Origin: Chiloscyllium plagiosum
Taxonomy: Eukaryota
NCBI RefSeq assembly: GCF_004010195.1
Contig: NC_057751.1
Coordinates: forward strand, 18,415,185-18,479,184
Length of the DNA stretch: 64,000 nucleotides
Direction of reading: 5' to 3'
A program made the position numbers and the translations under genes. The notes below the pieces were generated by a model that was given only the letters and a program-made list of their open reading frames with translations, made no database searches and was not told where the DNA came from. Shown piece after piece: positions 17,995-62,789 of this stretch (its first letter is position 1; the number at the start of each line of letters is the position of its first letter).

Positions 17995-18445
17995 GCGATA
18001 TGCTGGTACAACAGTTAACACTGCTGCTTCACAGTGCTATAGACTCAGCATGTGCTCCCTGTGTTTGCATGCAATTTTTTTTCTGGGTGGTCTCGTTTCT
18101 GACCACATTCCGAAGATGTGCAGTCAGTTGAAATACACATTTTTAAATTGCCTATAGTGTTCAGGGATGTGCCTGCGGGAATAGATAGGTAGCATAATAG
18201 GGTAAGGAATGAGGTAGGTTAAAACAAGGACTACAGATGCTGGAAACCAGAGTCTAGATTAGAGAGATGCTGGAAAAGCACAGCAGGTGAGGCCGCATCC
18301 AAGGAGCCGGAAAATGGACGTTTCGGGCAAAAACTCTTCATCAGGAATAGAGGGTAAGGAATGAGTATAGGATGGGTACTGTTCAGAGTTTTGATATGGA
18401 TTTGTTCGGATAAATGGATTGTTTCCACACTGCATGGATTCTATC
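17995..18445 (+). mobile_element. HE1-type SINE split by a PLE-tail insertion
   Basis: GTTAACACTGCTGCTTCACAGTG head, CCGAAGATGTGCAG body, TGTTTCCACACTG tail; interrupted at 18214-18350. Confidence 0.7.
18214..18350 (-). mobile_element. 137-bp Penelope family-1 tail insertion carrying a hammerhead core
   Basis: Perfect 15-bp TSD AGGGTAAGGAATGAG (18199-18213 / 18351-18365); minus strand reads ATTC-CTGATGA-AGAGTTTTTGCCC-GAAA-CGTC; homologous to 44915-45049. Confidence 0.85.
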
Positions 18446-18966
18446 ACTACGTATGTTTGATGGCATCCAGGTCAAAGTAGTTGGCTTCTTTGTCAACACT
18501 TCCATTTAATTCAACCCCCCCCCCCCCCCCCCAACGCCAGTGCTCAGTAGCAGCATTTTGAAGTGCAGATATTCATCGAAATTGTAAAGACAGAATTTTC
18601 CAAATCCTTCTATATCAAAAACAACAAGTCTGATGGATACTTGAGAACTCCACACATAGGTTCCCTCCAAGCGTTGCATAAATTGCATTTGCAAATCAAT
18701 TAATGTTCCTTAACATTCAATGGATGGGACACTGCATTGGCTTTGAGCAGTGTACTTCATTCTGATTTAGTTTTATATGAATTAAGGTTGCGATGGAGGT
18801 GGCAAGTGCTCTGCTTCAGGCCAATGAAATAAACTTTGTATGCGCTCTTGTATTTATTTTGAAACAAGAGAAAAAGTCTGAAAGGGTGAGATAAAGTTCC
18901 CACAGACCACAGTTTTAGTTTTAGATTTCAGTAGCTGTTGTGCTGTTGTGGCTGTGCAAATCACAA

Positions 18967-18968
<2 letters not shown>

Positions 18969-19015
<47 letters not shown>
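18969..19015. repeat. (CT)n microsatellite
   Basis: Pure CT run seen directly. Confidence 0.95.
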
Positions 19016-19017
<2 letters not shown>

Positions 19018-19142
19018 CCCCTCCCCACCCCTCATCTAAGAGCTGGGTTCACGTTCTGCTGCCAGAATTGCGAGTGAGGCAATCTATGCTATTGGAAGTG
19101 GTTTTGTCCAGGTTATGTTTGAATAGTTAATCACAGTTTATT

Positions 19143-20510
19143 TGTAGGTCAGCCAGTTGGACGTCATAGAATATAAATAAATCTGGTCCAGCCAGGGAGC
19201 CCTGGCTGACAGATACCAACAAAAGTGTGAGAGATTCTTTTCACTCTGAGAACTGGCTCTGAATAGTGTCAAGTGTAAGACATCTATAATAAAGAGTGAT
19301 GTTGTTGACAGGAGACTGGCCTCGATGAACAAATTTCAGTGCCAAAAAAAATGATTGCTAAATAAGACCGGATGTAGGTTTGTTCACTGACCTGGAAGGT
19401 TCACTTTCAGGCGTTTCATCACCATACTAGGTAATATCATCAGTGAGCCTCCAGATGGAGGCTTCATCCAGAGGCTGATTGATGATCTTACCTGGTTTGG
19501 TGAAAACGAACCTTCCAGCTCAACGAGCAAACCTACATCTAGAACCTCAACCTGAGCTACAAATCTTCGCAAAACTCACTACCTAAGACATTCGCATAAA
19601 CAGTAGTCCTTTATTTGGGGGAAGCATTTTAAGTATCATGCCAATATTTGGAAACTTGACAAATTAGAACTTGCATTGGAAGAATCGGCTCAGTAATCGA
19701 AAAGCATGCGTTACAGTTTCTGGGCAAATGACATTGGGGAAGATGTAAAGCAGAGAGTAATTCACCTCGACAGCTGGCAGCCCCATCGCATTTTGCGGTA
19801 TTCGGAGCCTAACCCTCCCTGAGGAAGCAAGCACTGAAGTTTTTCCAGAGTTGACATGTTTACTTCAGGAATATCACGACACCAAGTGTCCTCTAATTCT
19901 AAGACCCAGATGCTTAACTGTTTAGATCGAGAAGTCAGAAAATCCATGTCGAGATATGTGACGAGTATGAGAAGACTGTCAGAGGCATTTGACTTCGATT
20001 TAAACATTAATGAGATGATGAGATAACGGTTGGCATGTCGGATTAATGATGTAAGCATGCAAACGCTGCTACTAGCTGAAGGCCAACTCGACATTAAACA
20101 GGCACTACAATTGGTGGCATATGGAGTATGTGCATACGGGTATGCTGAAAGAAGTGGTCGCCCTTGTCAGTCCAAATGAGCTGGAGCGAAAGACAGTTGC
20201 TTACCCTCACTCAGGACCAATCCTGAACAGAGGAACTTCAGGTCAGCACACATCACAACCCCAAAACAAAGCCAAACCTCAGCTAAATTGTGTGCACACT
20301 TCCGTGCAAGTGGCACCAGTAGGTGGGACCAGGCCCTGTCATTTCGTCTTGCTTTTCCAATCGCTGATCTCAATAACTCGCGGCCAGACATTGCCAAGAC
20401 AACAACTCCATTCGGGCGAACATAGTTTGTCCATTACACACGGGAAACAAAATGGCAGCTTTCCCAACAGAGGAAAGGGTGCGGGGAAGGGTGTTTATGA
20501 CTAAATATGA
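19143..20510 (+). mobile_element. Second Gypsy-family LTR element fragment (short LTR + decayed gag)
   Basis: TGT..TTTCA LTR-like block (~19143-19338) with AATAAA; gag-like MPIFGNL (~19638) and RRLSEAFDFDLNINEMMR*RLACRIND..LLAEGQLDIKQALQL (~19970-20115). Confidence 0.6.
19369..19578. mobile_element. Palindromic Penelope family-3 terminal element with hammerhead-like core
   Basis: Inverted arms GATGTAGGTTTGTTC..CTGGAAGGTTC / GAACCTTCCAG..GAGCAAACCTACATC; imperfect TSD CTAAATAAGAC/CTACCTAAGAC (19358-19368 / 19579-19589). Confidence 0.7.
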
Positions 20511-20529
20511 GCTGAATGATCTCAATTTA

Positions 20530-21049
20530 AATTCACTCCTTCCTATCGGAAGGATGTTGTGAATGCTGAAATGGTTCAGAAAGGATTTACAAGAATGTTG
20601 CCAGAGTTGGAGGATTTGAGGTATAGGGAGAGGTTAAATAGGTTGTGACTGTTTTCCCTGGAGTGTCGGAGGCTGAAGGGAGACACTATGAGGATTTATA
20701 AAATCATGACAGGCTTGGATTAAGTAAATAGACAAAGTATTTTCCCTGGGGTGGGGGAGTCCAGAACTCGAGGACATATGCTGAGGCTGAAACGGGAAAG
20801 ATATAAAAGAGACATAAGAGGCAAATTTTTCACGCAGAATGTGGTACGTGTATGGAATGAGCTGCCAGACGACGTGGTGTAGGCTAGTAAAATTGTAACA
20901 TTTAAAAGGAATCTGGATGGGTATATGAAATGGAGAGATATGGGCCAGGTGCTGGCAAGTGGCACTAGATTAGGCTGGGATATCTGTTCGGCATGGACAG
21001 GTTGGACCAAAGGGTCTGTTTCCGTGCTGTACATCTCTATGACTCTATG
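20530..21049 (+). mobile_element. CR1 3' fragment
   Basis: Colinear with 34850-35375; ends CTCTATGACTCTATG. Confidence 0.9.
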
Positions 21050-22124
21050 GTCCAGTGCCATCTTCCACGAATTTTCCTTCCCTTGCCCTCTGGTGGTAAT
21101 TGGGAGTTCGTCACATTGACCTAATGTGGTCTGAACCATCGATTCACCTATTATCTTCTACAAACAGACAACTTTGCGAATGGATGTGGTTATTGGAACG
21201 TCTCTCAGTCATTCTGTTCAACTGCTTGTACAAGTTGGTGCTCCAGATGGGAAAAGCTGAACGCTTAGTGAGAAATGGTGGTTGCCTCAAAGTCTTGGGA
21301 GGCCATTAACGCTGAGTTACCTTTGGTTGTGGATGACCACAGCCGGATCCAAACTACAACAGCTAAGGCAGAATGCATCCCTCCAGCAAGCAGCTTCGCT
21401 TAACAACAAGCTGGGATGCAACTTTTAACATCGGTTCATCTCGGGCTAGACTGATAACTAAATGGATGGTCTGCATTTCTTCAACTGGATTGTGAGACTC
21501 TGAGTAAGCAGCAGTGAACTGTGAAACCCATATTATTAGTAGGCATTGCTCATCAAAGCCAGCATTAAGGAAACGATGATGAACACGTTGGAAACTCACA
21601 GAAGTGATTGCAGCAGTTGATAAAATGAAAGAACCTGTCTCATCCAAATTCCGTTTCTTTTACTTTTATAGGACACATCTTGTTCAGGTTTCAATCCTCC
21701 TCTCCCCTGTCATTCTATTTGAAACCGTCCCTAAAATTGCCCATGGTAATATCTCCTGCGTTATCAGCCCCTGCCCGGTTCTGACGATTCCACTCTGTGT
21801 TGGACCCATTTCACCCAGAACTGTTACCAGGATTGTCAAACTCGCACACACACCCCTCCCCCCTTCACTCTCATGCTTTTTCTTGGCCCAATATGTCCTT
21901 CTGTTTCTACACTTACTGGCAAGTGGCAGGTGGCGTCATCCTGGGATCATGTCCTTTGGGATCTCACTGCTTTCCGAACCCTCATTGTACGATTTTACGG
22001 ATTCGTCCCATTTTTGTATCCATTTCTTTGGTGCCAATGTGCCCCATAACCATTGGCTGTTCACACTCAACCACCCCCTCCCCATTGTTTCAGATTATCC
22101 TACAGCAGCTTTGAGACATCCTTT

Positions 22125-23278
22125 ATCTCGGCCTAAAAGTAGGCCTTTGATAAGCTTTGGCATATTAGGCTGTTCTGGATAGTTGGATGGCACGGAATCC
22201 TGGTAGAGCTTGCAAATTTGATACATAATTTGCTTGATAGTCGGATGCAGAGGGTAATAGTGGAAGGATGTTTGCGGGACTGGTGGCGTGTGACTAGTGG
22301 AGTGCCTTATGGATCGGAGTGGGCCCACTGCTGTTTATTATGCATATCAATCATTTGGATGAAAATCTAAAAGGCATGATTCATAACTTTGCAGGTAACA
22401 CTAAAATAGGAGGTTTCGTGGACAGTTAGGAAGATTATCAGAAATAGCAGCAGGTTCTTGATCAGCTGTGGAAGTGGGGTGAGAAATGGCACACGGATTT
22501 TATTATACACATGTGAGAGTTCTTTCAGTTTAGAAAGTCAAATCATGTTAGAATATTCATGGTGAATCAGTGCGTTGCAAGGAATGGAGTGGAACACAGA
22601 TTTCTTCAAGTTCAGATTCACAGTTCTCTGAAAGTGTTTTTGCAGACAGTTAAGAAGGCTTTGGTACCTTGGGTTTCATCAGTGAGGGCACTGAGTATCG
22701 AAGTTGGGAAATTATGTTATATTTGTATGTGAAGTTGGTGAGACTGTACTTGTAGTATTGTGTAGTGTTTCGGAAACCTTGCTTCTGTAAACATGTTATT
22801 GAACTGGAAAAAGTGACAAGAAATTAACGACGATGTTGCTCGGATTTAACGGTCTGAGTAATGGGGAAGTTCAGACAAGCTAGGACTTTTCTTTTTCAGA
22901 AGTAAGGAGACTGGGGGGACCTTATAAAGGTGTATAAATCATGACAGGCATGGGCAGGATGAATGCTTTTGTCCCACGTTTGGGAACACAAGGACTACAG
23001 GGCATCAATTTAAGGTTTAGGGGAACGAATAAAAGGGAACCTGAGTGTCAATATTTAATGAAGGTGATATGTATATGGAATGAGCTGCAAGCAGGAGAGG
23101 TAATGTGGTATATTAACAATAAGTAAAAGACATTTGTGCACATACATGCATAAAAATATTTTGGAAGGATATGGGACCACTGCAGGAAATAGGGATAGCG
23201 GTGATGAACGTTTTGCTCGGTCTGGGCTAGTTTGTAACAAGGGACCTATCTCCGGGCTATACACCCCTGACTCTGTGA
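22125..23278 (+). mobile_element. Older CR1 RT-3' fragment
   Basis: Degenerate KAFDK, SGVP.GS.VGPLLF, FAGNTKIGG; tail CTGACTCTGTGA. Confidence 0.75.
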
Positions 23279-25262: not shown

Positions 25263-25514
25263 TCAAGGACAACCAAAACTGCTGGAGAAACTCAGCCGGT
25301 CTGGTAGCATCTTTTCAGCAAGAAAGCAAAGTTAACTTTTCCGAAGGGGCACACATATGAAAATTTGTCTATCCTGCAGGGAATGCAGTGAATTAATAGC
25401 AAACCCTCCTGTATTTCTGTCGATATAAGTGGGCTTAGAAACTCCTTCAGATGTGGCATCAGAATAAACCTTCCATAAAACCCACGTAAAGAAATGTTTA
25501 ATATCCCAGTATAA

Positions 25515-26878: not shown

Positions 26879-26909
26879 GACTGACCTTTGCGTGCTTTCA
26901 GCTATACTT

Positions 26910-28822: not shown

Positions 28823-29900
28823 TGTTGGCATTGCACAACAAAAGACAAACAGGATTGTTCCCTCCCAGTTGGGGAACACTTCAGCCATCCAGGACATTCC
28901 AACTCGGACGTTCGGGTGACCATCCCCCAAGGTGGACTTCGGGACAGACAACAGCGAAAAGTGGCCAAGCAGAGGCTGATAGATAAGTTCCGTACCCATA
29001 GGGAGAGCTTCAACTTGGACCTTGGGTTCATATCACTCTACAGGTGACCACTATTGCACTGTCCACACACACAGACACTCCTACACACGCACAGAGACAC
29101 TCCTACACACACATGCACATGGATGCACACATACACAGAAACGCACACAGACACTCACACACACCCTTACAGACACACACAGTCCCACACTCACACATGC
29201 ATCCTCTCAGAGAGTTAGACTACTCTGCACTCACGTGCACGCATATACACTCTCTCTCACAGACATTCTCAACCCCCCACCCCACCCCAGACACAAACAC
29301 ACTCCCAAACTCAAAAATGCAACCCCCACAGACTTAAGACACTGGACACCCACACACACACACGCACACATGCACACACACAAAGACCCTTATGCACACA
29401 TATGCATATATGTTTGTGGGGTGAATTTGTACTTGCAGAGTTACATTGTACTTTGCTCAAAAACTGCATGAATTCATCTAATCTCACATTTTTTGATTAG
29501 AATCAATCTAAACATCATAGCATAGACAGAGAACACAGGGTGATAACACATTCAACATATTGTCTCGCTAACACCAATTGCTACAGTTAAACTGAAAACA
29601 CAACTTTTTTAAAAAAAATGTGATTTACACATGAAAGAAGTGAAACTATCATGTTATTCGAATAGATAAAAGACTCAATAGAAAATCAAGGCATATTTCA
29701 AGGTATAATTTCAGTTATATCACACTGTAAATGTTTGCTATTAATTCTGTGCCTTACAGTTGTGTCCTCCACAACCACCTGATGAAGGAGCGGCGCTCTG
29801 AAAGCTACTGTGCTTCCAGTTAAACCTGTTGGATTATAAGTTGTGTTCTGTAATGTTTAACTTTGTACACCCCAGTGCAACATCATCATCTCCAAATCAT
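28823..29900 (+). mobile_element. Penelope-like family 2, 3' fragment inserted into CR1 ORF1
   Basis: PVGEHFS..RQQRKVAKQRLIDKFRTH..FNLDLGF (GIY-YIG C-terminus), CA-rich UTR, hammerhead core at 29779; imperfect 15-bp TSD GTATATACCATTTTG / GTCTGTACCGTTTTG (28808-28822 / 29901-29915). Confidence 0.8.
29774..29812 (+). ncRNA. Minimal type I hammerhead ribozyme motif (PLE family 2)
   Basis: CAC-CUGAUGA-A-GGAGC(GGC)GCUCU-GAAA-GCUA; palindromic AGCU in stem III, CUA triplet; first stem I pair is mismatched. Confidence 0.6.
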
Positions 29901-31624
29901 GTCTGTACCGTTTTGGATACTGCTAGTGGGGACAACCTACCGGGGAAAACCATAGTTGTCAGGTCGCTGGCACTGAGCCTGGCACTGTGGCTCAGACATG
30001 AAGTGGGGAAAATAGAAAAGCGTTAATGGTAGGCGACTGAATAGTTTGACGGATTTACAGGCGATTTTGTGGTCAGGAACGGGACTCTCGGAAGGTATAT
30101 TGTCTCCCCGGTGACAGGGTCTGGGATGTCGCCAATTGGGTTTACACGATTCTGAAGAGGGAGGGTGAGCAGCCAGACTTTGTGGTACACATTGGCACCA
30201 ATTATATAGCCAGGAAAGGGATTGAGGATCTGAAAAGTGACTACAGCGAGTTAGATTGGAAGCTGAAGAGCAGGAAGAGTAGAGTAGTGATCTCAGGTTT
30301 GCTGCAGATGCCACGCGATAGTGAGATGAGGAAGAGTCAGCGAATGCAGTTTAACACGTGGATGCGAGGCTGGTGCAGGAGGGAGGGCTTCAGATATCCA
30401 GACCATTGGGATACCTTCTAGGGAAGGTGAGGCCTGTACATGAAGGACGGGTTGCACCTGAACTGGAGGGTCACAAATGTCCTGGGTGGGAGATTAGCTC
30501 GTGTGATTTGGGACAGTTAAAACTAGTTTGGCGGGAGTGGGGTGGGGGGGTGGGGGCGGGAATCACAGCCACATGTCTGTGTGGGGTTCAGTTGCAGATG
30601 GGGCAGCGACAGGATGATTTCAGTCTATCAGGAAGGTTTCTCATTCGATGAATCAAAGGGATCGGTTAAAACGTGTCTGCTTTAATGCAAGGAGTGTCCG
30701 GAATAAGAGTGATGAACTTAGAGCATGGATCAATACTTGGGCCAACGATGTTGTAGCCATAACAGAGACATGAGTTTCACAGTGGCAGGAATAGTTGCTT
30801 GATGTTCCAGGGTTTAGAACGTTTAAGTAGAACAGGGTGGGTGGAAAAAGAGGAGGGGTGTAGCATTGGTTATCAGACAATGCATCACAGCTACAGAAAC
30901 GAAGGTTGTTGAGGAAGGTTTGTCTACTGACTCAGTATGGGTGGAAGTTAGGAACAGAGAGGGAACAGAGGTTTTCTACAGATCACCTAATAGCAGTAGA
31001 GAGATTGAAGAACTCACAGGCGTGCAGATTGTGAAAAAATGCCGAAGTCGCAGGGTTGTTGTTACGGGTGTTTTCAACTTGCCCAATATCACTAGAACCT
31101 CCTCAGTGCAGATGGTTCAGATGGAGCCGTTTTTGTCAGGTGTGTTCAGGTGGGTTTCCTTACTCAGCCTTCGAGGGGAGAGGCCATTTTGGATTTGGTG
31201 CTTGGCCACGAGCCAGGACGGGTGTCAGATTTCGCCGTGGGAGAGCACTTTGGTGAAAGTGATCACAACTGCCTCACATCTAGCAAAACCTTGGAGAGTG
31301 AAAGGAGCAGTTCCAGAGGGAAGATATTTAATTGGGGAAAAGCAAATTATGACGCTATCAGGCAGGAGTTGGGAAGTACAGACTGGGAGCAATTGTTCCA
31401 CAGAAAGAGCACAGCAGACATGTGGAGACTATTTGAGGAGCAGTTGTTGCGAGTGATTCACGAATTTGTTTCTGTGAGACAGGTAAAAATGGCAAAGATT
31501 AAGGAACCTTGGATGACGAGAATACTGGAACATCTCGTCAAAAGAAAGAAGGCAGCTTACGTAAGGTGGAGGAAGCAAGGATCAAGCACACCTTTAGAAG
31601 ATTACAGGCTTGATAGAAAAGTAC

Positions 31625-32407: not shown

Positions 32408-35389
32408 AGTAGGTCCAATCAGGGACACCGGAGGGAACTTGTGCATTGATTCTGAGCAGATTGGGGAAGTCCTAAATTAGCTTTTTTGCTTCAGTTTTTA
32501 CCAAGGGAAGGGAACATGTTGTAAATGAAAACTTTGAGGAGCTAGGATACAGGGTTGACCAGATCAAGATTGATGACATTGATGTTTTGGAAATTTTGGA
32601 AAACATTAAGATTGATATCCCCAGGGCCAGACCAGATTTATCCATGTCTGCTCCAGGAAGCGAGAAAGGAGTTTGCTAAGCTGCTGGCGAGGATGTTGGC
32701 CTCCTCACTCTCCATGGGATTCGAAGGAGGTGAATTTTGTTCATCTTTTCAAGAGGGGTAATAGAGAATTCCCTGGCAATTGCAAACCAGTCAGTCTTAC
32801 GTCTGTGGTCAGCAGAGTTTTGGAAAGCATTCTGAGGGATAGGATTTATGACTATTTGGCAAAGCAGAGTGTGATTAAAGGCAGTCAGCCTGGCTTTGTG
32901 AGGGGCAAGTCATGCCTCACTAATCTTATTAAGTTTTTTGAGGAGGTGTCAAGACAGGTCGACGAATGTCAAGTAGTGGATGTGATGTATCTGGACTTCA
33001 GCAAGGCATTTGATAAGGTTCCCCATGGTAGGCTCATTCATGAAGTCAGCAAGTATGGCATACAGGGAAACTTGGCTATCTTAGTTCAAAATTGGCCGGC
33101 TGACAGAAGGCAGAGAGTGGCTGCAGATGCAAAGCATTCTTCCTGGAGGTCAGTGTTGAGTGGGGTGCCGCACGGCTCTGTTCTTGTGCCTCTGCTCTTT
33201 GCAATTTTTAAAAATGACTTGGATGAGGTTGAGGGGCGTGTTAGTAAATTTGTAGTTCACTCAAAGGTTGGAGGTGTCGTCGATAGTATAGAGGGCTACT
33301 GCAGGCTGCAGTGCGACATAGACAGGATGCAGAGCTGGGCTGAGAAATGGCAGATGGAGTTCAACCTGGATAAATGCGAAGTGATGCATTTTGGAAGTTC
33401 GAACCCAAATGCTGAATAAGACAGGATTCTTGGCAGTGTGGAGGAACAGAGGGATCTGGGTGTGCAAGTACATAGATCCCTCAAAGTTGCCACTTAAGTG
33501 GATAGGGTTGTTAAATAAGCATATGGCGTTTTGGCTTTCATTAATGGGGGATCAAGTTTAAGAGCCGTGAGGTTTTTCGTCATCTCCCCAAGTCCCTGGT
33601 GAGACTACACTTGGAATATTGTGTCCAGTTCGGGTCGTCCTTCTATAAGAAAGATATAAAGGCTTGGGAGAGGGTGCAAAGAACGTTTACCAGAATGCTG
33701 CCTGGACTGGAGGGCTTACATTATGAAAAATGTTTGAATAAACTCGGACGTTTCTCTCTGGAGAGAAGGAGAAAGAGAGGACACCTGATCGAGGTATACA
33801 AAATAATGAGTGAATTAAGAGAGAATCAATAACCAGAGACCTTTCCCCAGGGGATTGACTGTTACGAGGAGTCATGGTTAGAATATATTGGGAGGAAGTT
33901 GAAAAGGAGATGTCAGAGGTAGGTTCTTTACGCAGAGAGTTGTGAATGCATGGAATGTTTTGCCAGTTGTGATAGTAGAAGCAGAGTCATTGGGGACTTT
34001 AAAGCGACTGCTGGGCATGAACATGGATAGAAGTGAGTTGAGCGGTGCATAGTAAAGTTACTATATTTTACATTAGGATTAAACATCGGCACAACATTGT
34101 GGGCTAAATGGAATGTTTCGTGCTGTACTTTTCTATTTTATTTGTCTCTAAATAAGAAAGAAGTTTGATGAGGGCAGCGAGGTAGATGTGATCTAGATGC
34201 ACTTCAGTAAGTCATTCGACAATATTCGCAATGGGAGACTGATTAGCAAGGTTAGATCTCACGGGATACAGGAAGAACTAGCCATTTGGATACAGAATTG
34301 GCTCAAAGGTAGAAGATAGAGGTTGGTCGTAGAGGGTTGCCTTTCACTCTGTAGACCTGTGACCATAGTAGTGCCACAATGATCGCTGCTGGCTCCATTA
34401 CTTTTTGTCATTTATATAAATGATTTGTGTATAACTGTAAGTTACCGTTTGTAACTTGGCAGATGACACCAGAATTGGAGGGTTAGTGGACAGTGAAGAA
34501 GCTTACCCCAGATTGCAACGGGATCTTGATCAGATGGGCCAATGGGCTGAGAGGTGGTAGATGGAATTTAATTCAGATAAATGTGAGGTTCTGCATTTTG
34601 GGAAAGCAAATCTTAGCAGGACTTATTCACTTAATGGTAATGTCAGGAGGAGTGCTGCTGAACGAAGACACTTGCGAGTGCAGGTTCATAGCTCCTAGAA
34701 AGAGGAGTCGCAGGTAGATACGATAGTGAAGAAGACATTTGGTACGTTTTCCTTTATTGGTCAGAGTATTGAGTACGGGAGTTGGGAGGTCATGTTGCGA
34801 CTGTACAGGACATTGGAATGGCCTCTGTTGGAACGTTGCATGCAATTCTGGTCTCCTTCCTATCGGAAAGATGTTGTGAAATTTGAAAGGATTCAGAAAA
34901 GATTTACAAGGATGTTGACAGGGTTGGAGGATTTGAGTTTTCGGGAGAGGGTGAACCGGCTGGGACTACTTTCCCTGGAGCGTTGGAGGCTGAGGGATGA
35001 CATTATAGAGGTCTACAAATTCATGAGGGGCATGGATATGGTAATTAGACAAAGTCTTTTCCCTGGGGTGGGGGAGTCCATAACAAGAGCGCATAGGGTT
35101 AGGATGAAAGGGGAAAGATATAAAAGAGACTTAATGGGCAACTGTTTCATGCAGAAGGTGGTACGTGCATGGAATGAGCTGCCAGAGGAAGTGGTGGTAG
35201 CTAGTACAATTGCAACATTCAAGAGACATTTGGATGAGTATATGAATAGGAAGGGTTTGGAGGGATATGGTTCGGTTGTTGGCGGTGGGACTAGATTGGG
35301 TTGGGATATCTGGTCGGTAGGGATGAGTTTGACCAAAGGGTCTGTTTCTATGCTGTACATCTCAATGTCTCTACGACCTCCCCTCATTC

Positions 35390-36774: not shown

Positions 36775-36874
36775 TGTCTAGATTAGAGTTGTGCTGGAAA
36801 AGCACGGCAGGTCAGACAACATCCGAGAAGAAAAATCGACATTTCGGCCAAAAGACCTTCATCAGGACTTTTGC
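36775..36874 (-). mobile_element. 100-bp Penelope family-1 tail insertion
   Basis: Perfect 14-bp TSD CTACACTTATTCAC (36761-36774 / 36875-36888); homologous to 44915-45020. Confidence 0.85.
36833..36870 (-). ncRNA. Minimal type I hammerhead ribozyme motif, best preserved copy
   Basis: Minus strand: AAGUC-CUGAUGA-A-GGUC(UUUU)GGCC-GAAA-U-GUC-GAUUU; stems I and II fully paired allowing GU; conserved core intact. Confidence 0.7.
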
Positions 36875-40909: not shown

Positions 40910-43900
40910 TATGATGATGCTTTCCCTTTAACAAAGTAATGTTGTACTCGGTTTTTTCAAGGTGTCTCATAAATTGTGATATTATGAAAATATATGCTTA
41001 AGAATGTATTTTTTTTTAAGAATCACATAGACAATGAAAAGGCTGTCGCTAGTTTTCCAAGTTCAGGGCTTTTCTTTCTGGTTTGGTTTGGTTTAGCAGG
41101 CAGTCTGTTTAAAGCAGCTGTTCAAAGAAGGCTGCTGGGAGGAAAGATTTCTTTGTTTGAATACAAGTTTTCTGGCTGACCTTATCTATGAGATTTCTCC
41201 TGAATGAACCTGTGATTGACATTATTTGCCAAGGGCGTGTTATGGGGTGTTGCATGGCATTTGTAACTGCGTCATTAACTTGTTTAAGAGTCGATTGCGT
41301 TTTCAGATAGGTTAAGATGTTCTAAAGTCGAGAGCGTTGTGCTGGATACGCACAGCTGGTCAGGCAGCATCAGAGGAGGGGGAGAATATACGTTTCGGGC
41401 AAAAACCTTTCATGGGAAATGAAGCCTTTAGACGAGGGATTAGTAAGATAAATGGGAGCGGTGAGAGTGTAGGAAAGGTAACTGAGGGTGCGATAGATGG
41501 ATGGAGGTAGGTGTAATGGTGATAGGTCAGAGAGGAGGGTGAACTCAATAGGTGGAATAGAAGAGGGACAGGTAAGACAGGTCATGTGTGCAGTGTCGAA
41601 TTCGAGGTTGAGACGGAGATAAAGTGTGGCAGAGGAAATGACGAAACTGGTGAAACCCATGTTGTTATTGTGGGGTTGGAGGGTTCTGAGATGGAATTTG
41701 AGGCGTTCTTCCTCCGGTTGTCAGGTGATTAGGGAGTGGCGATGGAGGAGGCCGATGAACTACATGTTCTTGGTGGAATGGGAGGGGGTGTAGAAGTGTT
41801 CGGCCGTGGGGCAGTGAGGTTGGTTGGTGCGGGTGTCCCAGTGATGTTTTCTGAAGTGCTTTGCAAGTAACGTCCTGACTGCCCAATGTCGAGGAGACTG
41901 CATCAGGAGCAACGGATGCAGTAAATGACATGAATGGAAGTGCAGGTAAAACTCTGATGGATATTGAAGGCTCCTTTGAAACCTTGCACGGAGATGAGGG
42001 GGGAGGTGAGTAGGCAGGTTTTGCAATTCCTGCTTTGAGGGGTAAGGTGCTACGAGGGGATGGTGGGCTGCTGGGAGCTGTGGACATAGCAAGGAATTCA
42101 CGGAGGAAATGGACTTTATGGAAAGTGGATAGAGTTGGGAGGAACGTATATCTGTGGAAGTTGGTTCTGTGACTGCTGGCCAAACAATTATCTCCGCAAC
42201 CACCAGGCAGACAACCACCGCTGCTACTGCTATAAGATCCGCTGCTGTCGAAATTAACATGAGGCCAAACTGGAACATCACTTTTGCCCCCTTTGTTGCT
42301 GCTCCCCACCGACATCACCTACATAACGCACTCTACCACTTCCATCCACGTAGCTGCCACTGTCGCAACCACTTCCATGCCCACAGATGCCACTCACCTG
42401 AACACCACCAATAGAATCGCAGATGACTCAGCCCCCCCCCCCCCACACCACAGATCCCACAGTCACCACCTCGGTAAACGTCGGCATCCCCTGTTCCTCT
42501 ACAATCACGCCCACTCCAGTTAAAATCTCCAACCCCACTCCCATCTCCAGTTCAACACCAACACCTTTCTCCCATTGCTGCCGGTTTTTCACCATCATCC
42601 CAGACCTCCTCTTCACTAAGGACGAATGATCAGTACTCAGCAAAGGCATTCCCGTCATTTCCCTTCAGTTCTGGACCAACATATTCAATATGCATTATGA
42701 CATCGAACACTGCCTCCACCTCGAGGCTTATTTTATCCATCTAGAGTCACACACACCTTCCAGGGACCCGTTCTCCAGTCTCCAACACAGCCCATTCACC
42801 TGGATAACCTATGCCGGTCTGTTACCCGCCATTGATCTCTTTATATCTAATTGCCACTGCAACGTTGACCAGCTCAACCTGTCCACCCCCCTCATCTACT
42901 CCAACCTCGCAATGCGCAGCCCTTCGCTCCATCCATTCCAGCCACAACCTCATCATCAAATCAACAGATGGGGAGGTGGGTTGTGTAGTGGTAATTTGGC
43001 ACACTGACCCTTACATCGCTGAAGGCCGGTGCCAACTCGTAGACACATCCCCCTCGTGCCCCGTCGATCACGACTTCACCTCCCTTCACCAAAACATCAT
43101 CTGTCAGACCGCACACAACATCACTACCTCAGGGGTACTCCCACCCACAGCTTCCAACCTCACAGTTCCAGAACCCACTTCACCCAGTTTTGCCTCCTAC
43201 CCAATACCCACAAACCTGATTAATCCAGTTGACCCATTTTCTTGGCCTACTCCTGCTCCATCAAAATCACCTCCACATAAATTGATACTGTCCTATAAGC
43301 CCTGTAGCAGGAACACTGCATATGCATTCGAGACACCGCCCTTCGCCTCTCCTCATCTTCACCATGGGCATCCAGTCCCATACACCTCCATCCATCATGA
43401 CGAGCGCCTCCAAGCGCTCCATATCCTCCTGTCCCAAAGTTCTCACTACTACCCTCTACTGACACTCGTATTAGTTTGGCTGAACTGGTGCTCACCCTTA
43501 ATAATTTCTCCTTTGAATCATTCCACTTCCTCCAGATGAAAGGAGTACCCATGGGCATCTGCATGGGCCCCTGCCTGTCTCTTTGTCAGTTACGTGGATC
43601 AATCCATCTTCCTAAGTCACACTTTCACCATCCCCGCCGTTACTTTGATGACTGAATAGGAGTCACTTCGTGCCCCAAAGAAGACGTTGAACAGTTCATC
43701 GACTTCACTGACACATTCCACGCCGACCTTAAGTTCGCCTAGACCATATCAGACACCTCCCACCCCGCACCACCACCCGCACTTCCTAGATCTTCCCATT
43801 TACATCAACAGTAATTGACACCACACTGATATCTTCCTCAAATCCACCAACTCCCACAGCTACTTGGATTACACCTTCTCCCACCCTACCTCCTGCAAAA

Positions 43901-46900
43901 ATGCTATCGCTTATTCCCTATTCCGCTGCCGCCTCTGCTCCTAGGAGGACCAGTTCCACCACATAACACACCAGATGTCCTCCTTCTTTGAAGATCGCAA
44001 ATTCCCCTACCACGTCATTAATGATGCTGTCCAGCGCATCTCATCCGCTTCCTGCACCTGCGCCTTCGAACCTCACTGTTCTAACCACAACGAGGACAGA
44101 AACCTCCTCCCACCCCCCCCCCACCGATCCTCACGTTCTTACTGACTAACCACTGTATGCATCACATCATCCTCCACCATTTTTGCCAACTACAAACGGA
44201 CTCCACAACCAGAGATACATTTTCCAACCCACCCGATCCACTTTTCTTAAAGACCACGCCCTCCGTGACCCTCTTTTCAGATGCACGCTCCCCACCAACC
44301 CAACCTCCCCTGCCAGCACCTACACCTGCCACCACAATATTTGCGGAACCTCCACCCACACTTCCCTCTCACCTCGGTCCAAGGGCCCCATCGATCAGAG
44401 TTTTACATGCACGTCATTTTCTGCATCTGTTGCTCCTGATGTGATCTTCTCTACATTGGGAGACAGCATGCCTACTTGCAGAGCGGTTTAGTGGACAGAT
44501 CTGGGAAACTGATACCAACCAACCCCACTGCTCCCTGGACAAACACTTCAGCTCCCACTCGTACTGCGCCAAGCACCTGCAGATCCTAGGCCTCCTCTAC
44601 CGCCACTCCCTAGGCACCTGATCCCTGGAGGAAGAACGCTTCATCTTCTGCTTCATGAAACTGCAACCCCACAACATTAGTGTGGATTTCACCAGTTTCC
44701 TTATTCCCTCCCAACGTTATCCCAGATCCAACCTTCAACTCAGCACCGCTCTCATGACCTGTCCTATCTTTGCATCTTCCTTCCCACCCATCTGCTCCAT
44801 CTCCCCTCCAACCAACCACCATTACCCCCAACTCTGTCTACCTATCGCACTCTCAGCTGCCCTTACCCCCAGACTCACCCCCAACCATCTCTCTTACCAC
44901 CCCTGAGCTCAGAACTGTATTCCTGATGGAGGTTTTTTTGCCCAAAATGTCAATTCTCCTGCTCCTCGGATGCTGCCTGACCTGCTGTGCTTTTGCAGCA
45001 CCACACTTTCGATACTAATCTCCAGCATCTGCAGTCCTCACTTTCGCCTAAGTTACTCTAAATCCAATTCTCTTTAGTTCGTGTTTCATTCCGAATAAAC
45101 ACATCCCGTTTTCCTTAAAACTGAACGGTTGGTCCAGCAGCATCTCTCCTAAAATACCCACTTACACTAAAAAGAATTAAGAAAGTTATGGTCTGGACTA
45201 CCATTTTGAAATGATTTCAGGACTGATCCATAACAGCTTCCGGGCTCTTTGTGGGCTTAGTTTTATAGTTCAGATTTGGACTCAAAGGTGGTTTGTGTTA
45301 GTGTCTCATGTACAGGGTTTTGAATTTGCTTGGCTTATACAGTGCTTGTTGTGGCAATGGCTCTTTCAGCTTAGAGTTATTTGGGTGTAGAGGATGCGAC
45401 TTTGGCGAATTTATAAAATGTGAACAAGGCAGAGCTACTTGAATTGCAATTAATCTGGAGTTGGAGTTATTTTCGTTTGTAAGGCAAGAAATTGGAATTA
45501 CAGCAATGTCTCAGCATTTAAAATTTCCACAAACGTATGAACATTAGAATTTTAGTTTCAGGAGTAGGAGTAGGCTAACTGGCCCTTGCAGCCACAAGGG
45601 CTACACACTTTACTGTGTCACTCATCTTAGTATCTTCTGCTATGTGTGAACAACGCAAAGTCAATGCATTTATGAAATCTTATCCATATCCCATTTCACG
45701 TTTTGAAGACTGCATTTAAAAATTGGGAGAAGCAACGTATCTTTCCGAATGGGATTTGTTCAGAAGATTCTGGCAGATAAACTATTCCAAAAGCGCGAAG
45801 ATAAATTGCCTTCTGTGATGCCTAATGGACTGTGTCTATTAAAAATCATGCATTTTGGTATACAAATGTGCGAGGCTTATTTCAAAAATTAAACAGTGCG
45901 GTCAGTTCCGGAGTACCCAATTGTGTAATTTATATTGATGACGTGGTGATTTTGAGTCACACATCTGCATCATTTATCAGTGTTGTTCAATCGACTTCAG
46001 GAGGCAGACTTTGTGTTAAAACTGGCTTAGAGTGAATTTGCAAATGTTCAACGCATTTGTCTGAGCCGTGTGATTGGACATGGACAAATGACCCCACGGA
46101 ATGAAAACAAAGGTAATTGGGGAGTTCTAGTACTATCAACAAAAATTAGCAGTAGAGGAACAGCGATTCCTGGGATTGAGAGTATTTTATCGGTAACTCG
46201 CACCAAATTTTTGCAATGTGTTTACTCCTCTCACTGAGTTACTGAAGATAGGCAAGAAGTTAGTGGACAGCAGACTGTCAGGAGGCATTTCACAGCCTGA
46301 AATCTCTATTCACCACTGCTTTAGTGTTAACCACACCTCATGAAATGAAGCCATTTAAGGTGGCTGTTGAACTGACTGAAATGGGTTCGGTGTTGTGCTC
46401 TTGCAGGAAGATGACGAGAAGGTAGAAAGACCTATCTGGAATTTCGCAAGGAAGTTGAACATTCGTCAGCAGAAATATTCGACAATTGAGTAGCAGACCT
46501 TAACATTTCAACATTTGTGTTACCACGAATGTATCTGAGACAGTCATGTACACTAATCATAACCCTTTATAGTTTGTGGTGAAATGTAAGGACAAAAAAA
46601 ATCAGACTGTTTGGGTGAAGCATGTTGTTACAGCCAATCGGTTTGGAAATTACTCATGTGGCAGAATGCAAAAACATGATTTCCGCTGCATTGTCGAAAC
46701 TTGGACAAGAAACAGAGGCTTTTGATGTCAAGAGTAAATGATCTAATACAGAATGTAGTAGTGTATGTTTGCAAGTTTTTTAGTCAATGGCATGTATATG
46801 TATTGTAGGTTACTAACTGTTAGGTTTAAGGGGTTTTAATATGAATCCATTTTGGATATTAATGATTCAGCATTAAGGGGAAAGTATGATGATGCTGCTC

Positions 46901-47498
46901 CTTTAACAAGGTTATTCTGTTCTTTATTTTATTCACGCGGGGTCGTAATGGCAGAGGATCAGATATCTTCAGAAATATTTATTTGACACTGGTTTGAAGT
47001 CTTTCTTTTAAAACACTTGCACAATGAAGGTGCAGTGGCAGCGTCTTCCAATTTAGAATTTGGTTTGGTTTGGTGTTAGCACGCAGGCCTTTTGAAGCTT
47101 CTGGACAAAGAAATCGCTCCATTTTGATCCTCTCTTTCTCTCCCTCTCCCAATATCCTCTTCATCTCTCTCTCTCTCTCTGACACCTGTTCTGTAAGAGC
47201 CTGTATTAATTTTACCTTTACTTGCGCTGTTTATGAGGATGTTGCAATTGCTTGGAACAGCATCTCTGACTTGGGATAGAGTCTAGTGGCTTGTAAGATA
47301 GGTTAAGTTATTCTAAATTCGTTTCTCTTTTGTTCGTGTTTCATTCAGTAGTCTGTCGATAAATTCTGTTTTGTTTAAAACTGTGGAGTTGGGTCAGCTG
47401 CCTCACTTCTGGAATATGCACTATAACGTTACTTGAAACTATTAGAAAAGTTGTGGTCTGGGCTCCGTTCTTCAAATTTTCTGAGCTGGACCATAACT
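40910..47498 (+). mobile_element. Internally deleted Gmr1-like Gypsy element with two LTRs (5' LTR 40910-41326 + 45050-45235; 3' LTR 46885-47498)
   Basis: Both LTRs start TATGATGATGC and end CCATAAC(A/T); RT YPISRFEDCI and YIDDVVI; RNase H PFKVAVE, FARKLNIRQQKYSTIE, YTNHNPL; PPT AAGGGGAAAG at 46875-46884. Confidence 0.85.
41327..45049 (+). mobile_element. Large decayed Penelope-like element (family 1): RT + GIY-YIG, with an inverted copy of its 3' end at the 5' side
   Basis: QMKGVPMGICMGP (~43533), RYFDD (~43638), FLDL, LYIG (~44449); 41327-~42150 is the reverse complement of ~44250-45010; TSD-like AAGATGTTCTAAA / AAGTTACTCTAAA. Confidence 0.85.
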
Positions 47499-47904: not shown

Positions 47905-48072
47905 AAATGTGTTGATGGATAAGCACAGCAGGTCAGGGAGCATCAAAGGAGCAGGAGAATCGACGTTTCGGGTCGATTCTCCTGCTCCTTGGATGCTGCC
48001 TGACCTGCTGCGCTTTTCCAGCAACACATTTTCAGCTCTGATCTCTAGCATCTGCAGTCCTCACTTTCTCCT
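47905..48072. mobile_element. Palindromic Penelope family-1 tail insertion
   Basis: Inverted arms centred ~47970; 15-bp TSD ATGTTTCT(A/G)GCCTTG (47890-47904 / 48073-48087). Confidence 0.85.
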
Positions 48073-50600: not shown

Positions 50601-50683
50601 AGCAACACTGGCAAATAATAAAAATCGAGAAATAAGGGTCCGATATTCAGTAAAGATGGCACGAAATGGAAGAGAGATAGCGT

Positions 50684-51818
50684 CACAGAGACATAGAGAT
50701 GTACAGCATGGAAACAGACCCTTTGGTCCAACCTGTCAATGCCGACCAGATATCCCAATCCAATCTAGTCCCACCTGCCAACGCCCGAACCATAACCCTC
50801 CAAACCCTTCCTATTCATATACCCATCCAAATGCCTCCAAATTGTTGCAATTGTACCAGCCTCCACCACATCCTCTGGCAGCTCATTCCATACACGTGCC
50901 ATCCTCTGCGTGAAAAAGTTGCCCCTTAGGTCTCTTTTATATCTTTTCCCTCTCACCCTAAACCTATGCCCTCTAGTTCTCGACTCCCCGACTCCAGGGA
51001 AAAGACTTTGCCTATTTATCCCATCCATGCCCCTCATAATTTTGTAAACCTCTATAAGGTCAACACTCAGACTCCGACGCTCCAGGGAAAACAGCCCCAG
51101 CCTTTCAGCATCTCCCTGTAGCTCAGATCCTCCAACCCTTGCAACATCCTTGTAAATCTTTTCTGAACACTTTCAAATTTCACAACATCTTTCCGATAGG
51201 AAGGAGACCAGAATTGCATGCAATGTTCCAACCGTGACCATTCTAATGTCCTGTACAGCCGTAACATGACCTCCCAACACCTGTACTCAATACTCTGACC
51301 AATAAAGGAAAGCATACCAAATGCCTTCTTCACTATCCTATCTACCTGGGACTGCACTTTCAAGGAGCTATGAACCTGTGCTCCAAGGTCTCTTTGTTCA
51401 GCAACACTCCCTAGGACCTTACCATTAAGTGTATAAATCCTGCTAAGATCTCCTCTCCCAAAATGCAGCACCTCCCATTTATCCGAATTAAACTCCATCT
51501 GCCACTTCTCAGCCCATTGGCCCATCTGGTCCAGATCCTGTTTAATCTGAGTTAACCCTTTTCGCTGTCCACTACACCTCCAATTTTGTTGTCATCTGCA
51601 AACTTATTAACTGTACCTCTTATGTTCGCATCCAAATCATTCATGTAAATGACAAAAAGTAGAGGACCCAGCACCGATCCTTGTGGCACTCCACTGGTCA
51701 CAGGCCTCCAGTCTGAAAAACAACCCTCCACCACCCTCAGTCTTCTACCTTTGAGCCAGTTCTGTATCCAAATGACTAGTTCTTCCTGTATTCCATCAGA
51801 TCTAACCTTGCTAATCAT
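50684..51818 (-). mobile_element. CR1 LINE, 5'-truncated 3' part
   Basis: [48 protein letters not shown]. Confidence 0.93.
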
Positions 51819-52128
51819 CCCACTTGTTTGTGTTTCGCCATTGTCCCTCTAAATTCTTAACCATTCATGGATCTTTTCAATGTTGTGAGTGCACTCATCT
51901 CCAGTACTTCTTCTGGCCGTTTGTTCCACACATGCGAGAACCTCGGTGTTAAAGAAAAATGCCCCTCAGGTTTTATAATGTTTTTAACCAAATAACCTTT
52001 AACCTACGCCATCTAGTTCAGATTTGCTGTGGCATTCTCACCTCACCTGATGACTAGTATCTGTGGCCTTGTCTGTCTCTCTCCAAGTCAGTTCCTTACA
52101 CATGTCGGCAACCAATTTCCAACCTCTG

Positions 52129-52327
52129 GATTAGTGGTGCTGGAAGAGCACAGCAGTTCAGGCAGCATCCAAGGAGCAGCAAAATCGACGTTTCGGGCAA
52201 AAGAGATCTTTTGCCCGAAACGTCGATTTCGCTGCTCCTTGGATGCTGCGTGAACTGCTGTGCTCTTCCAGTACCGTTAATCCAGAATCTGGTTTCCAGC
52301 ATCTGCAGTCATTGCTTGTACCTCGTT
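52129..52327. mobile_element. Palindromic Penelope family-1 tail insertion
   Basis: ~75-bp near-perfect inverted arms around AAAAGAGATCTTTT (~52199-52212); 15-bp TSD AATTTCC(A/T)ACCTCTG (52114-52128 / 52328-52342). Confidence 0.9.
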
Positions 52328-58400: not shown

Positions 58401-59106
58401 TCTCGAGAAACCCTCATGGAGAAGCCTCACTCTTTGTGCGCTGAAAGTGTAGTTTTGTGGAAAACGTTTCTGAGGAAATCATATTTGATCACAGGCTCAA
58501 TCTGTATGCATAGTAACATACAGCCCTGATAAACTTGTCCTAGTTTCTTTTTTCCTTCTTATCAAGGTAGTGTAAGTCACATTTTCATGAATAATGGCTC
58601 CTGAATTTCCATACAGATAATGTTTGGGTGAATCTCAGGTATTCTGTGAATATCCAAAGACACCCATCATTTTGTGCATTGAAACAGATCTCGGACTGAC
58701 GTAGAGCAGCAACAAACGAGAAACGTCAACATTTGCTTTGTAATTACTGAATGGCCATACTGTGATTTGAATATCTGAAACTTCATGAGATATACGGTTG
58801 AATCTGAATTGGTGCTGAAGGAATTACCTCAGCGTGTTGATTGCAATTAAGAAAAAAACGCATAATTAACTGTTGTGATCAGAGTTCAGCAGCTGAACCT
58901 CGTTACTAAATATATTGCATCTCTGTAGGGACTTGACTGTCAAGGCATGCCTGTCCTTTTTAATGCTTCACCTTATCATCTTAATGTTCTTGTCAAGATC
59001 AAACAGCTTATGAATTGAATGCTTTGAGTGTCGCCTGACTCAGAGTTTAACGTAGTTAGCATCGATATTTCCTGCAGCAAAAAGCAGCAAATCATTTGAG
59101 ATAGAA

Positions 59107-59173
59107 ATGCATTATCCAATTGACAATGTCGTGAAAATATATTACAGTATCCTTGCTGTTATTGGCGTACCTG
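59107..59173 (+). CDS. Predicted first coding exon of a second GPR139/GPR142-like GPCR paralog
   Basis: ATG in GAAATGC context, upstream in-frame TAG at 59053; encodes MHYPIDNVVKIYYSILAVIGVP + G, then donor GTAAGT at 59174; its phase 1 matches the phase-1 acceptor type at 3794 (..GVP|VNL..). Confidence 0.8.
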
Positions 59174-62100
59174 GTAAGTGGATCATAAATAATGGAACCT
59201 CTGTCAATTTGATTGAGAGCTGATCCCTGACTTTCGTTCTGTGATGAGTAAGGTTATATCTGCTTCTACTATTTACCGTTACACGGGTACCAATCTATGA
59301 TAACGTTTTTGTAGAACCGAATGTACTGAATTCCTTTTCGTGTTATATTGTGAGCCATCAAAATGATCATATGTTTTCACCTCACGATTGTTCTGAGCAA
59401 TCAAACTATTCCATTCCTTGAAATCGAGTACTAATAGCCATTTTTATGTATTAGTGATGGTAGAATGCTGTGAACTATAGAAATTTATCGACTTGAAGCA
59501 ATAGCACACTCTAAACGATAGCCATGGTGTGCTATGGTAGTATCCCACGTGCGGTTTAGTTAATTTGAATTGAATACATGAATGAGAAATATTCAGAAAT
59601 CCACTGAATATATCAGGAGACAATAATATACACCTGAGCTAGAGAGTATATTTTATTTTCAACATCTGTCCTTAACATATTTTTAAATGTATGTTAATTC
59701 CTGGAATTAAACAAGCCGTGTTCCATTTTCAGAGTAATCTTTAGGCTCTCCCAATCAATGCAGCTGCCTTTGCGTGTTTACTCAAGTAAACATTGCAGAG
59801 ATATTAACGTTTCTTTTGATCGTTTGTAAATATACTAATGAAACTCAATCCTTCTTTGTCTTGCATTTTCGGCTGCAATAAAGAAGCTTGCTAAAAACTT
59901 ATTAACAAATAAGCATTTGCACAATGTTGCTATTGTGCTCGCCTTCACCAGTGTATGAGAAGATGTTCTGACGGGGCAGTATGTCGTTTCAGCTCTGCTG
60001 AGATGTTCTATCAATACTTTAACAAAGACTGTCCAGTCAATTGCAAATCTGAAGACTTAATTCCAACGAAAAACCAAAGACCAATCGATATGTCCATCAT
60101 CCATTATTAAACAGACAGGTTAAAAACATAAAGGAAATTAAGGAAGACCGATGTAATTGTCCATACATGGAACGCTGGTCAAAAAATTGGAGAATATATA
60201 TGAAAAAAGACACAAAAGAGAACCAAAGATAAAATTGACAGCAATGTATAATTGATAGTAAGAGACTATATTAAAATGATGAAAGAAGAAAACATTTCGC
60301 AAGATGGTCGTGGGCTCTCTGTAAACATGAGACTTGAGAGTAAATATTGGAAAGCATGAAAAGACAGGTGAATTGAATTGATATTTTCGATCAGCCTTCC
60401 CTCTATTGGACCGAAATTACATTGAATAAATAACAATGAAATAATAAGAGAAGACATTGAGCAATTCAGAAAAGGTGCAAAGACCAGTTCCATGGCACAG
60501 AGGTAAAAATTACGTGTGAAATAGATAATGTATTGTTTTAAGTATTCACGTTATCCTTGTTCTGGGGAGGTCCAATGTTATTAGAAGATAGCTATTGTGA
60601 CTCGTTCATTCCAAAAGGGAGACATAAATTTGCAAGTTAGTGTACAGTTGGCTCCAAACAGCCGATAGGATTCTCTGACATGGAAAGTGTATTTGACAAT
60701 TGACATAAAGATCAAAATAGTTAATGTTTGGAGGGATATGGCCAAGCGTTGGCAGGTAGGAGTAATTTAGTTTGAGATGATGGTCGGTGTGGGCTGGTTG
60801 GACTGAAGGACATTTTTCTCTGCTGTATAACACAATGTATCAATCACATGTAGTGCTTTGTGATGGGAACTGATGTTGTGGTCAGAGTGACTGAATGGAT
60901 GGACTGAATATTGACTTGTAGAAGAGACTTCATCATAATGTATTGCCGAAATTAACCTCTCAAATTACAGTTGTTCATATGGATTTATAATTGGCTGGCC
61001 ACAAGTAGAAATGTATGTTCAATTGTGTATTTCTCATTGTAGCAAGACATAATGAGTTACTTGTGCAGGAAATGGGATCCCAACTGCTTATAATCTATAT
61101 AAGTGAAGAGATGAACACAGCAACAATACAATAGTCAAATTTCCTGCTGACTGAAAGTTGATCGTGTGAAGAGGATATAAGAAGGCTAAAAAGAAGTGCA
61201 GATAGGCAACATGAATAGGCAATGATATGGGAAATCGCATACAATATTCAAAATTTGTGGTTGTCAAATTTAGCAAGAGGTATACAAAGAACTGCGCATT
61301 TTCCGAATGCTTAGAGCTTGCAGGACACTGAGAGGCAGATAGTGGTGATTGTCCTCATTTACGAACCACAAATTGTTCATGTGCGTTTACCACATGTATT
61401 TTCGGAATGATGGTGATATATCATCTGCACTGGTCGCATTTGTTTGTTTTGCGTGTGTGAATATTATGGATGAAAGAGACAAAGGACTGTTTTAAATCAC
61501 TGAAATTTAAGAGGTGGCTGAAAGTAACAAACCTGGCAGGCATTGCAGGTATTGTCCAAACAATACTTTTGAACAGACATCACTTGAACTTTGAGTTGCA
61601 GATGATTTGTATGCAAGCAGCTATAGAGATACAGCTTTCTCTGGCAATCAGAAGTCCATTGATTTCTGGACGAGTGACCATTTGTAAATTGCAGAGATCT
61701 TTTGTCTGTCAACAAAGTTGTAACTGATTCGAATGTGTTGATCCTCTTGGGGCTAGGAAGAAATCGCAAAGGACAGTTCTTCACCAGCTCAGAGAAGACG
61801 TTTTTAATTACTACTACCACAATTCACTGGAAATCCGAGGACAATAAGTAATATTTATTGCAATAATTGCTTTAAACTCTGAGTTTAGCTGACGAATCAG
61901 AGAAGTTTAAATAAGTGATCTGGCTACCTTGTTTCTGTTACCAAGCAGTGAAAGCATTAAGGTGAAGATAGCTGTAGAAATACGCTGGACAGCAGAAGAG
62001 TCATACTCGTCATCGCACAACACATGTGAGATCAAAAACAACTGGACTGTAATATCCGTTCACTAGCTATTTCTGAAAACTATGTGTTCTGTTGTGAATG

Positions 62101-62199
62101 TAAACCTAAATTTATAAATTGTTAATACGAGATTATAGTGTTCATTCGTCATCTTAAGTACTGACTGCGTATAAATTTTACCTGTAACTTGCATCCATT

Positions 62200-62490
62200 T
62201 CATAGAATGCATGCAGTACAGATGGACGCAATGCTATTTACTGACCGTTCAAAGTGCCTCCTGTCACCTTTCCATAGTTTAATCCACATGCACATTCCTG
62301 GATTAGACTCGGAAATTTAGAGTGGTCAATCTACCGAAACTGTACATCTTTCCAGTGTGGGAGCAAACCAAGCACCCATGCAACCACATATAAATTCCAC
62401 ACTGATACTCATGCAAAGCTGGAATTGAACCTGCATTCCTGGTATTGTAAGACAGGTAATGTGCTGCGCAGGGCACCCCGTTATGAAACA
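62200..62490 (-). mobile_element. Old HE1-type SINE
   Basis: Minus strand: GGTTCAATTCCAGC, GTGTGGAATTT, TGCTCCCACACTGGAAAGATGT. Confidence 0.55.
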
Positions 62491-62533
62491 ACACTCCCTT
62501 TCACAAGAGAAACTTTGTCAGTGATTTATAATA

Positions 62534-62660
62534 GGAAAAAGTGAGGATTGCAGATTCTGGAGATCAGAGTCGAGAATGGGGAACTGGAAAAGCACAGCAT
62601 ATCAGGCAGAATCCGAAGAGCAGGAGAATCGACGTTTCATGCACAAGCGCTTCATCAGGA
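62534..62660 (-). mobile_element. ~127-bp Penelope family-1 tail insertion with hammerhead core
   Basis: Minus strand: ATC-CTGATGA-AGCGCTTGTGCAT-GAAA-CGTC-GAT; imperfect TSD TGATTTATAATA / TGTTTTATATTA. Confidence 0.75.
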
Positions 62661-62789
62661 TGTTTTATATTAACCTGGGTTTGAAAATCAGGCAAACTGG
62701 GTAACATTTCGTATGTTCCAACATCTTTAAATCGTATGTTGACACTGTGAACAGGGGAGTTTCATTGCCAGTGAATGTGACACATTATA

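Follow-up and report, generated by a model that had tools for sequence, protein, structure and literature searches.

The element class, hammerhead motif, tail, inversions and solo hammerheads that concern us here have all been published. The closest described units are the endonuclease-positive (EN+) Penelope-like elements (PLEs) of the Neptune and Nematis clades (Arkhipova 2013, PMC3846280; Craig 2021, PMC8557442), which join a reverse transcriptase (RT) to a C-terminal GIY-YIG nuclease via a Zn-finger-like linker, are heavily truncated at the 5′ end, and show target duplications, junction palindromes, an inverted partner arm and a 30-40-bp tail on one arm, the last two already published there. 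A linker of the CX2-5CxxC type marks these two clades (PMC8557442). Minimal hammerhead ribozymes from the pseudo-long terminal repeats (pLTRs) of PLEs have a type-I core without a stem III loop, are mostly single and as such ascribed to truncated PLEs, with some paired on opposite strands 100-700 bp apart (Cervera and de la Peña 2014, PMC4209133). In vitro work on the Anolis Poseidon element PAc (Frangieh 2024, PMC11167929) described a hammerhead at the start of the open reading frame (ORF), two internal start sites near it that define the tail, extension of both target strands, and an uncut RNA template, a shorter RNA 5′ end giving a shorter product. The transposition cycle of PLEs and the role of their hammerhead are regarded as open questions (PMC8557442, PMC11167929). 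Here we analyze a 64,000-nt stretch of the Chiloscyllium plagiosum genome (contig NC_057751.1, positions 18,415,185 to 18,479,184; the window), in which short PLE copies share the published features and, in addition, begin at a fixed point beside the hammerhead.

The window is vertebrate DNA with a G protein-coupled receptor (GPCR) gene and many old repeats, and contains six insertions, comprising nine arms, of a PLE that we term family 1, along with members of families 2 and 3. Offsets are counted with the C of CUGAUGA as +1, negative values lying upstream of the core and the predicted cut after +28. Seven of the nine family-1 arms, from five of the six insertions, have their 5′ ends within −6 to +27 (−6, −6, −2 to −4, +12, +12, +18 and +26/27). 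We interpret this pile of short-copy 5′ ends at the leading edge of the hammerhead, or slightly within it, as the result of run-off at the RNA’s 5′ end after internal priming, a reading to which we assign a probability of roughly 0.55. The pile itself is genuine, holds at genome scale and belongs to an element class already known; the mechanism is testable, as yet unproven, and differs from one in which the fold sets the stop. The copies on which this rests are the following.

18214-18350, minus strand: family-1 stub, tailed, 5′ end at −6; target duplication 18199-18213/18351-18365, 15/15 identical
36775-36871, minus strand: family-1 stub, tailless, 5′ end at −6; duplication 36758-36774/36872-36888, 16/17
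62533-62660, minus strand: family-1 stub, tailed, starting at −2 to −4; target duplication uncertain
47905-48072, no single strand: family-1 pair joined head to head; the left arm begins at +18 and lacks a tail, the right arm begins at +26/27 and has one, with a shared G at 47972; duplication 14/15
52129-52327, no single strand: head-to-head family-1 pair; both arms from +12, with four filler bases at 52204-52207 and a tail on the right arm only; duplication 14/15
42160-45049, plus strand: long decayed family-1 arm with core at 44923, comprising RT, C-X4-C-X2-C linker, GIY-YIG, 3′ untranslated region, hammerhead and tail; tblastn to 1e-69
41328-42157, minus strand: inverted partner arm of the long family-1 insertion, tailless, reading through the hammerhead
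28913-29901, plus strand: long family-2 copy with core at 29779, the reference for the family-2 read test
11291-12313, minus strand: long family-2 copy with core at 11413
19369-19583, no single strand: head-to-head family-3 pair; arms ending at −18 and −17, centre at 19461/19462, tail on one arm
25280-25342, minus strand: stub of a related family, decayed, with its 5′ edge close to stem II (low confidence)

The initial annotation of this DNA had claimed that the breakpoints of short insertions cluster at the hammerhead, and all six features that it cited are found at their positions. The clustering is upheld against smooth decay: under the most favourable exponential truncation null, the probability of at least 7/9 arms falling in −9 to +27 is 0.0003-0.003, and that of at least 5/6 insertions 0.0006-0.003. 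That interval was picked post hoc, and since it was chosen after seeing the data, the read analyses of families 1 and 2 given below serve as the independent tests. A filter-free profile scan of the window recovered the nine known family-1 arms and the decayed stub at 25280-25342 (E 9e-5; 17.6 bits versus 6.6 in the best of 10 shuffles), with no shorter stubs above noise. The annotation had passed over the long counter-examples, which are the family-1 insertion at 41328-45049, whose arms extend ~740 and ~2760 nt upstream of the core, and both family-2 copies (~870-900 nt upstream). It had also placed the simple stubs ~6, 9 and ~2 nt upstream of the core: the first offset stands, the third becomes −2 to −4, and the second is −6 because the adjoining duplication is 17 bp long. 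A 7-nt inverted piece entertained for this second stub was dropped on account of the same longer duplication. Target-duplication scores exceed the 99th percentile of the null (8; maximum in 300, 12) in four of the nine insertions tested and not in the other five; the stub at 62533-62660 matches at 10/12 positions by eye and scores 6, not above the 95th percentile (7). As had been described, the pairs at 47905 and 52129 invert within the hammerhead and the family-3 pair upstream of its core, at −17/−18. At the start of one arm of the latter (19448-19461, minus strand), a hairpin of 5 bp shortly precedes stem I, and the breakpoint lies at the 5′ foot of this hairpin.

For the family-1 read test, four of 24 listed public runs were aligned to 44600-45080 at 80% likeness. 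Three organisms contributed 75,121, 103,322 and 12,814 contigs, and the raw RNA reads numbered 3,374; run X1 may share its source with the window. Tail depth is 78, 109, 436 and 91 times that of the deepest upstream bin in the four runs, summed contig depth not being equivalent to copy number. Depth at the end of the ORF (~−300) is similar to that at ~−150, which makes this a step rather than a steady decay. Among the 24 of 1,277 loose-end rows listed, the consensus of the clipped letters runs through the core to −5, and in 4/9 rows to −8, beyond which the letters are A/T-rich and differ between runs, the upstream sequence of the element itself being C/T-rich. Fitted agreement is 0.42-0.49 upstream, 0.37-0.38 in rows at the outer 3′ end and 0.57-0.63 inside. 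Most family-1 copies thus end there and a minority continue. Further, family-1 copies have two fixed 3′ ends, 35-40 nt apart, and tailed and tailless arms share one 5′ stopping place; as the 5′ stop is the same despite the different 3′ ends, the end is fixed by sequence and not by length. Clips at 44936-44953 were rejected as breakpoints, being artefacts of the decayed reference. Inversion joints (15 of 140 rows listed) are too few for a histogram. A few head-to-tail joints are also present, landing at +40 or later. We also noticed tail-to-tail joints of opposite strands from 45009 to 45045/45050 (13+6 contigs in run X1, 9+3 in X9 and 1 in X15), which join tailless and tailed ends and possibly represent tandem palindromic units or self-insertion.

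The family-2 test, also on four runs, used 29620-29910 as reference, which includes the true upstream sequence. Here depth drops only 1.7-4.6-fold across the hammerhead, which is mostly read through. In three of the four runs there is nonetheless a discrete pile of ends at 29770/29771 (−9/−8), with 103, 106 and 26 contigs among the 24 of 754 rows listed. Flank agreement at this pile is 0.35, 0.34 and 0.39, the level of the 3′-end rows (0.35-0.40; 713, 563 and 75 contigs in the rows listed). Clips at 29766/29767, 3-4 nt off the pile, share upstream letters (agreement 0.47-0.89) and represent other subfamilies. The raw RNA run additionally has 360 and 402 reads with poly(A) at 29833 and 29839 (plus strand), shortly past the AATAAA of the family-2 consensus. 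These sites lie ~60 nt upstream of the family-2 3′ end, leaving such RNAs devoid of the outer priming site, and the RNAs may derive from a few host genes that use the signal.

Judged by its sequence, family 1 is a Neptune-type EN+ PLE, the Neptune label being based on the linker and the vertebrate range and displacing the label ‘Poseidon’, which we dropped. An 84-residue piece of the long element matched four proteins among 27 candidates, three of the four named from bamboo shark (80-83% identity). Shark and skate proteins align along 42480-44806, with PF00078 in two of the four and PF26215 in all four; the matched proteins carry DKG, YIDD and a GIY-YIG-like core, which was spotted by eye and missed by the regular expression. 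As in EN+ PLEs, a single ORF holds the RT and the C-terminal GIY-YIG, and the 30-40-bp tail is on one arm only in 4/4 inverted insertions. The linker before the nuclease reads CHRRNCKTC in protein P0002, and this motif lines up with degenerate versions in both long arms. When 9 and 8 broken window pieces were scanned directly with Pfam, no RT or nuclease family was found, and a PDB sequence search gave a single match, judged to be chance. The copies and the loose-end consensus display CUGANGA, stem II, GAAA, a palindromic stem III and NUH, as expected of a minimal type-I hammerhead; Rfam at the gathering threshold returned no hammerhead match. A 21-letter tail pattern was found at no loci in viral contigs and at 14 in metagenome contigs, none flanked by element sequence.

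We see the stubs as dead copies of Neptune-type PLEs, made from uncut templates. The hammerhead would lie near the very start of the element RNA, and the RT, primed internally 90-130 nt downstream, would run off the RNA 5′ end. A stub would result where the first start-site copy in the transcript is used for priming, only priming on the downstream read-through copy would allow the ORF to be copied, and priming of both cut strands, with trimming and head-to-head joining of the two cDNA ends, would produce a palindrome. The family-1 consensus has a match to YYANWYY, the definition of the initiator motif, with its A at −4, and family 2 has C-A at −9/−8. The transcription start sites of Penelope and Chlamys lie within the pLTR (PMC2377424; PMC8557442). 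Full-length and twin-primed L1 copies (PMC11702581) likewise reflect run-off at the RNA 5′ end and inversion via second-strand priming; L1 differs in its poly(A)-tail priming and extra cap G; PLE priming is inferred to be internal here, and a cap G is seen in few of our rows. The earlier view that these ends are not plain cleavage products agrees with our data: six of the seven short arms retain at least 10 bases upstream of the predicted cut, and the seventh, at 47973, starts 2-3 nt before it and could, as a single case, derive from cut RNA. No read-start pile is seen at the predicted cut in the family-1 and family-2 runs, whose library type is unsuited to this.

Several observations weigh against the run-off reading. 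No pile of RNA starts appears in the family-1 and family-2 tests, for which one poly(A)-primed raw run was used at 2% of its reads. A cap-derived G is found in only one of nine family-1 consensus rows (at −5), none of three window stubs and one of three family-2 rows. Because agreement upstream (0.42-0.49) exceeds baseline, some family-1 copies do continue past this point, and decay of the family-1 reference, which affects the hammerhead and 50 nt on its upstream side, may inflate the depth ratios. The figures come from the 24/1,277 and 24/754 loose-end rows listed for families 1 and 2 rather than from a full histogram, and the family-2 pile is absent among the six rows listed for the raw-read run. 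Finally, four family-1 palindrome arms end within the motif (+12 to +27), requiring extra trimming or stalling; therefore either trimming or a real effect of the fold must act at these junctions.

The palindromes bear further on how such copies arise. In the pair at 47905, positions +18 to +25 are missing from the tailed arm and the tail is missing from its partner; because each holds bases that the other lacks, they are not copies of one another and two synthesis events are needed. Arkhipova (2013, PMC3846280) ascribes junction palindromes to self-priming, a mechanism that, in its simple form, does not fit this pair. The other inverted insertions fit either twin priming or snap-back. A more specific version of the run-off reading, which we advance tentatively, sees in the stubs a strong-stop-like product: with the ribozyme at the front of a capped mRNA, the enzyme might prime mostly in cis on the first start site, yielding stubs ~100:1 over ORF-reaching copies, such that each pile would mark the transcription start of its family and the hammerhead would remove the cap-proximal 30 nt instead of releasing unit-length RNA.

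The leading rival, which the initial annotation had favoured and which we consider unlikely, is that a folded hammerhead, as monomer, dimer or protein-bound form, stalls the RT or triggers template switching. The ~100-fold depth step of family 1 and the four palindrome arms ending in or next to stems II and III would be accommodated by it, as would the protein-assisted folding of the Anolis ribozyme (PMC11167929), and a fold effect is possible at the junctions inside stem II. Yet an RT would encounter the fold from its 3′ side, reaching stem I (+29 to +33) before stem II (+17 to +20), and the entire motif is traversed in the three simple stubs as well as in both family-3 arms. The offsets, moreover, are family-specific (~−5, −8/−9 and −17/−18 for families 1, 2 and 3); a roadblock therefore fits poorly, as it does with the shallow drop in family 2. 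Stem II of family 1 is only 4 bp long. As weak evidence, the hammerhead is missing from the minimum-energy structures computed for the three decayed stubs.

Slightly less probable again, and not supported by our data, is the proposal, also raised in that annotation, that the stubs are a self-propagating non-autonomous element, i.e. a ribozyme-bearing short interspersed element (SINE) or a retrozyme monomer spread from short master copies. Non-autonomous Penelope derivatives do exist (PMC8557442; bioRxiv 10.64898/2026.07.22.740005), and the very high ratio of stubs to long copies in the family-1 reads and the clean target duplications would suit such an element. Non-LTR retrozymes resemble our copies in being non-coding and pLTR-related, with type-I hammerheads and dispersed monomers, but their defining trait is a tandem arrangement in which every unit carries a hammerhead (bioRxiv 10.64898/2026.07.22.740005), whereas the window insertions are single or head-to-head and tandem arrays are seen in 0/5 short family-1 insertions. 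The latter also show at least three tail types, palindrome centres that differ, and ends away from the cut site. A ribozyme-SINE would be expected to form a clade of its own. Two short copies group with the long copy, on weak split support (53/95; nine short sequences, low power), in a tree of nine rows in which one of six inner branches is well supported and several tail types are present.

Ordinary smooth 5′ truncation compounded by detection or alignment bias strikes us as improbable: extensive truncation is a known trait of Penelope copies, the window sample is small and the family-1 reference is decayed, but the null is rejected at P≤0.003, the filter-free scan found nothing shorter, upstream depth is flat after the family-1 step, and the family-2 pile is discrete within a well-matching stretch. 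Least credible of all is splicing into an acceptor immediately ahead of helix I, suggested by a Drosophila virilis intron that ends there (PMC4209133) and by the AG that both long family-1 arms carry 10-12 nt before the core, following a tract rich in pyrimidines; this fails because target duplications directly adjoin stubs at −6 and −6, leaving no intervening exon, while the family-1 loose ends in the rows listed share no common upstream exon and the family-2 pile has no AG.

Our search of the openly readable literature, which places subscription papers such as Arkhipova 2006 outside its scope, found no published account of a fixed 5′ end at the hammerhead. Such a pile is not reported in the portions of the Neptune/Nematis papers drawn on here (PMC3846280; PMC8557442). 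The parts used of the pLTR hammerhead study (PMC4209133) contain no breakpoint mapping and propose cleavage with circularization, whereas the window copies came from uncut RNA. The PAc work (PMC11167929) concerns another clade and leaves genomic 5′ ends unanalyzed in its text, though the genomic coverage in its Fig. S2 may show a step. With the 5′ end fixed across many thousands of copies, one can predict the transcription start, the copying of uncut RNA, and the origin of partial tandems and inverted pairs; for annotators, it would imply that repeats of this kind, 100-230 bp in length, should be read as by-products and not as SINE families.

Elsewhere in the window, an open frame at 3757-4698 (plus strand; 313 residues) matches rhodopsin-family GPCRs (PF00001, E 9e-18). 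A further abundant 5′-truncated repeat family, which we take to be CR1/HER1-like, occurs at 1432-2674, 20536-21050, 34154-35377 and 50682-51823. The long family-1 insertion itself splits another repeat (41240-41330 and 45049-45234), of which an intact copy lies at 47231-47497; comparison with this copy implies an overlap of ~18 bp, likely the decayed target duplication of the long insertion.

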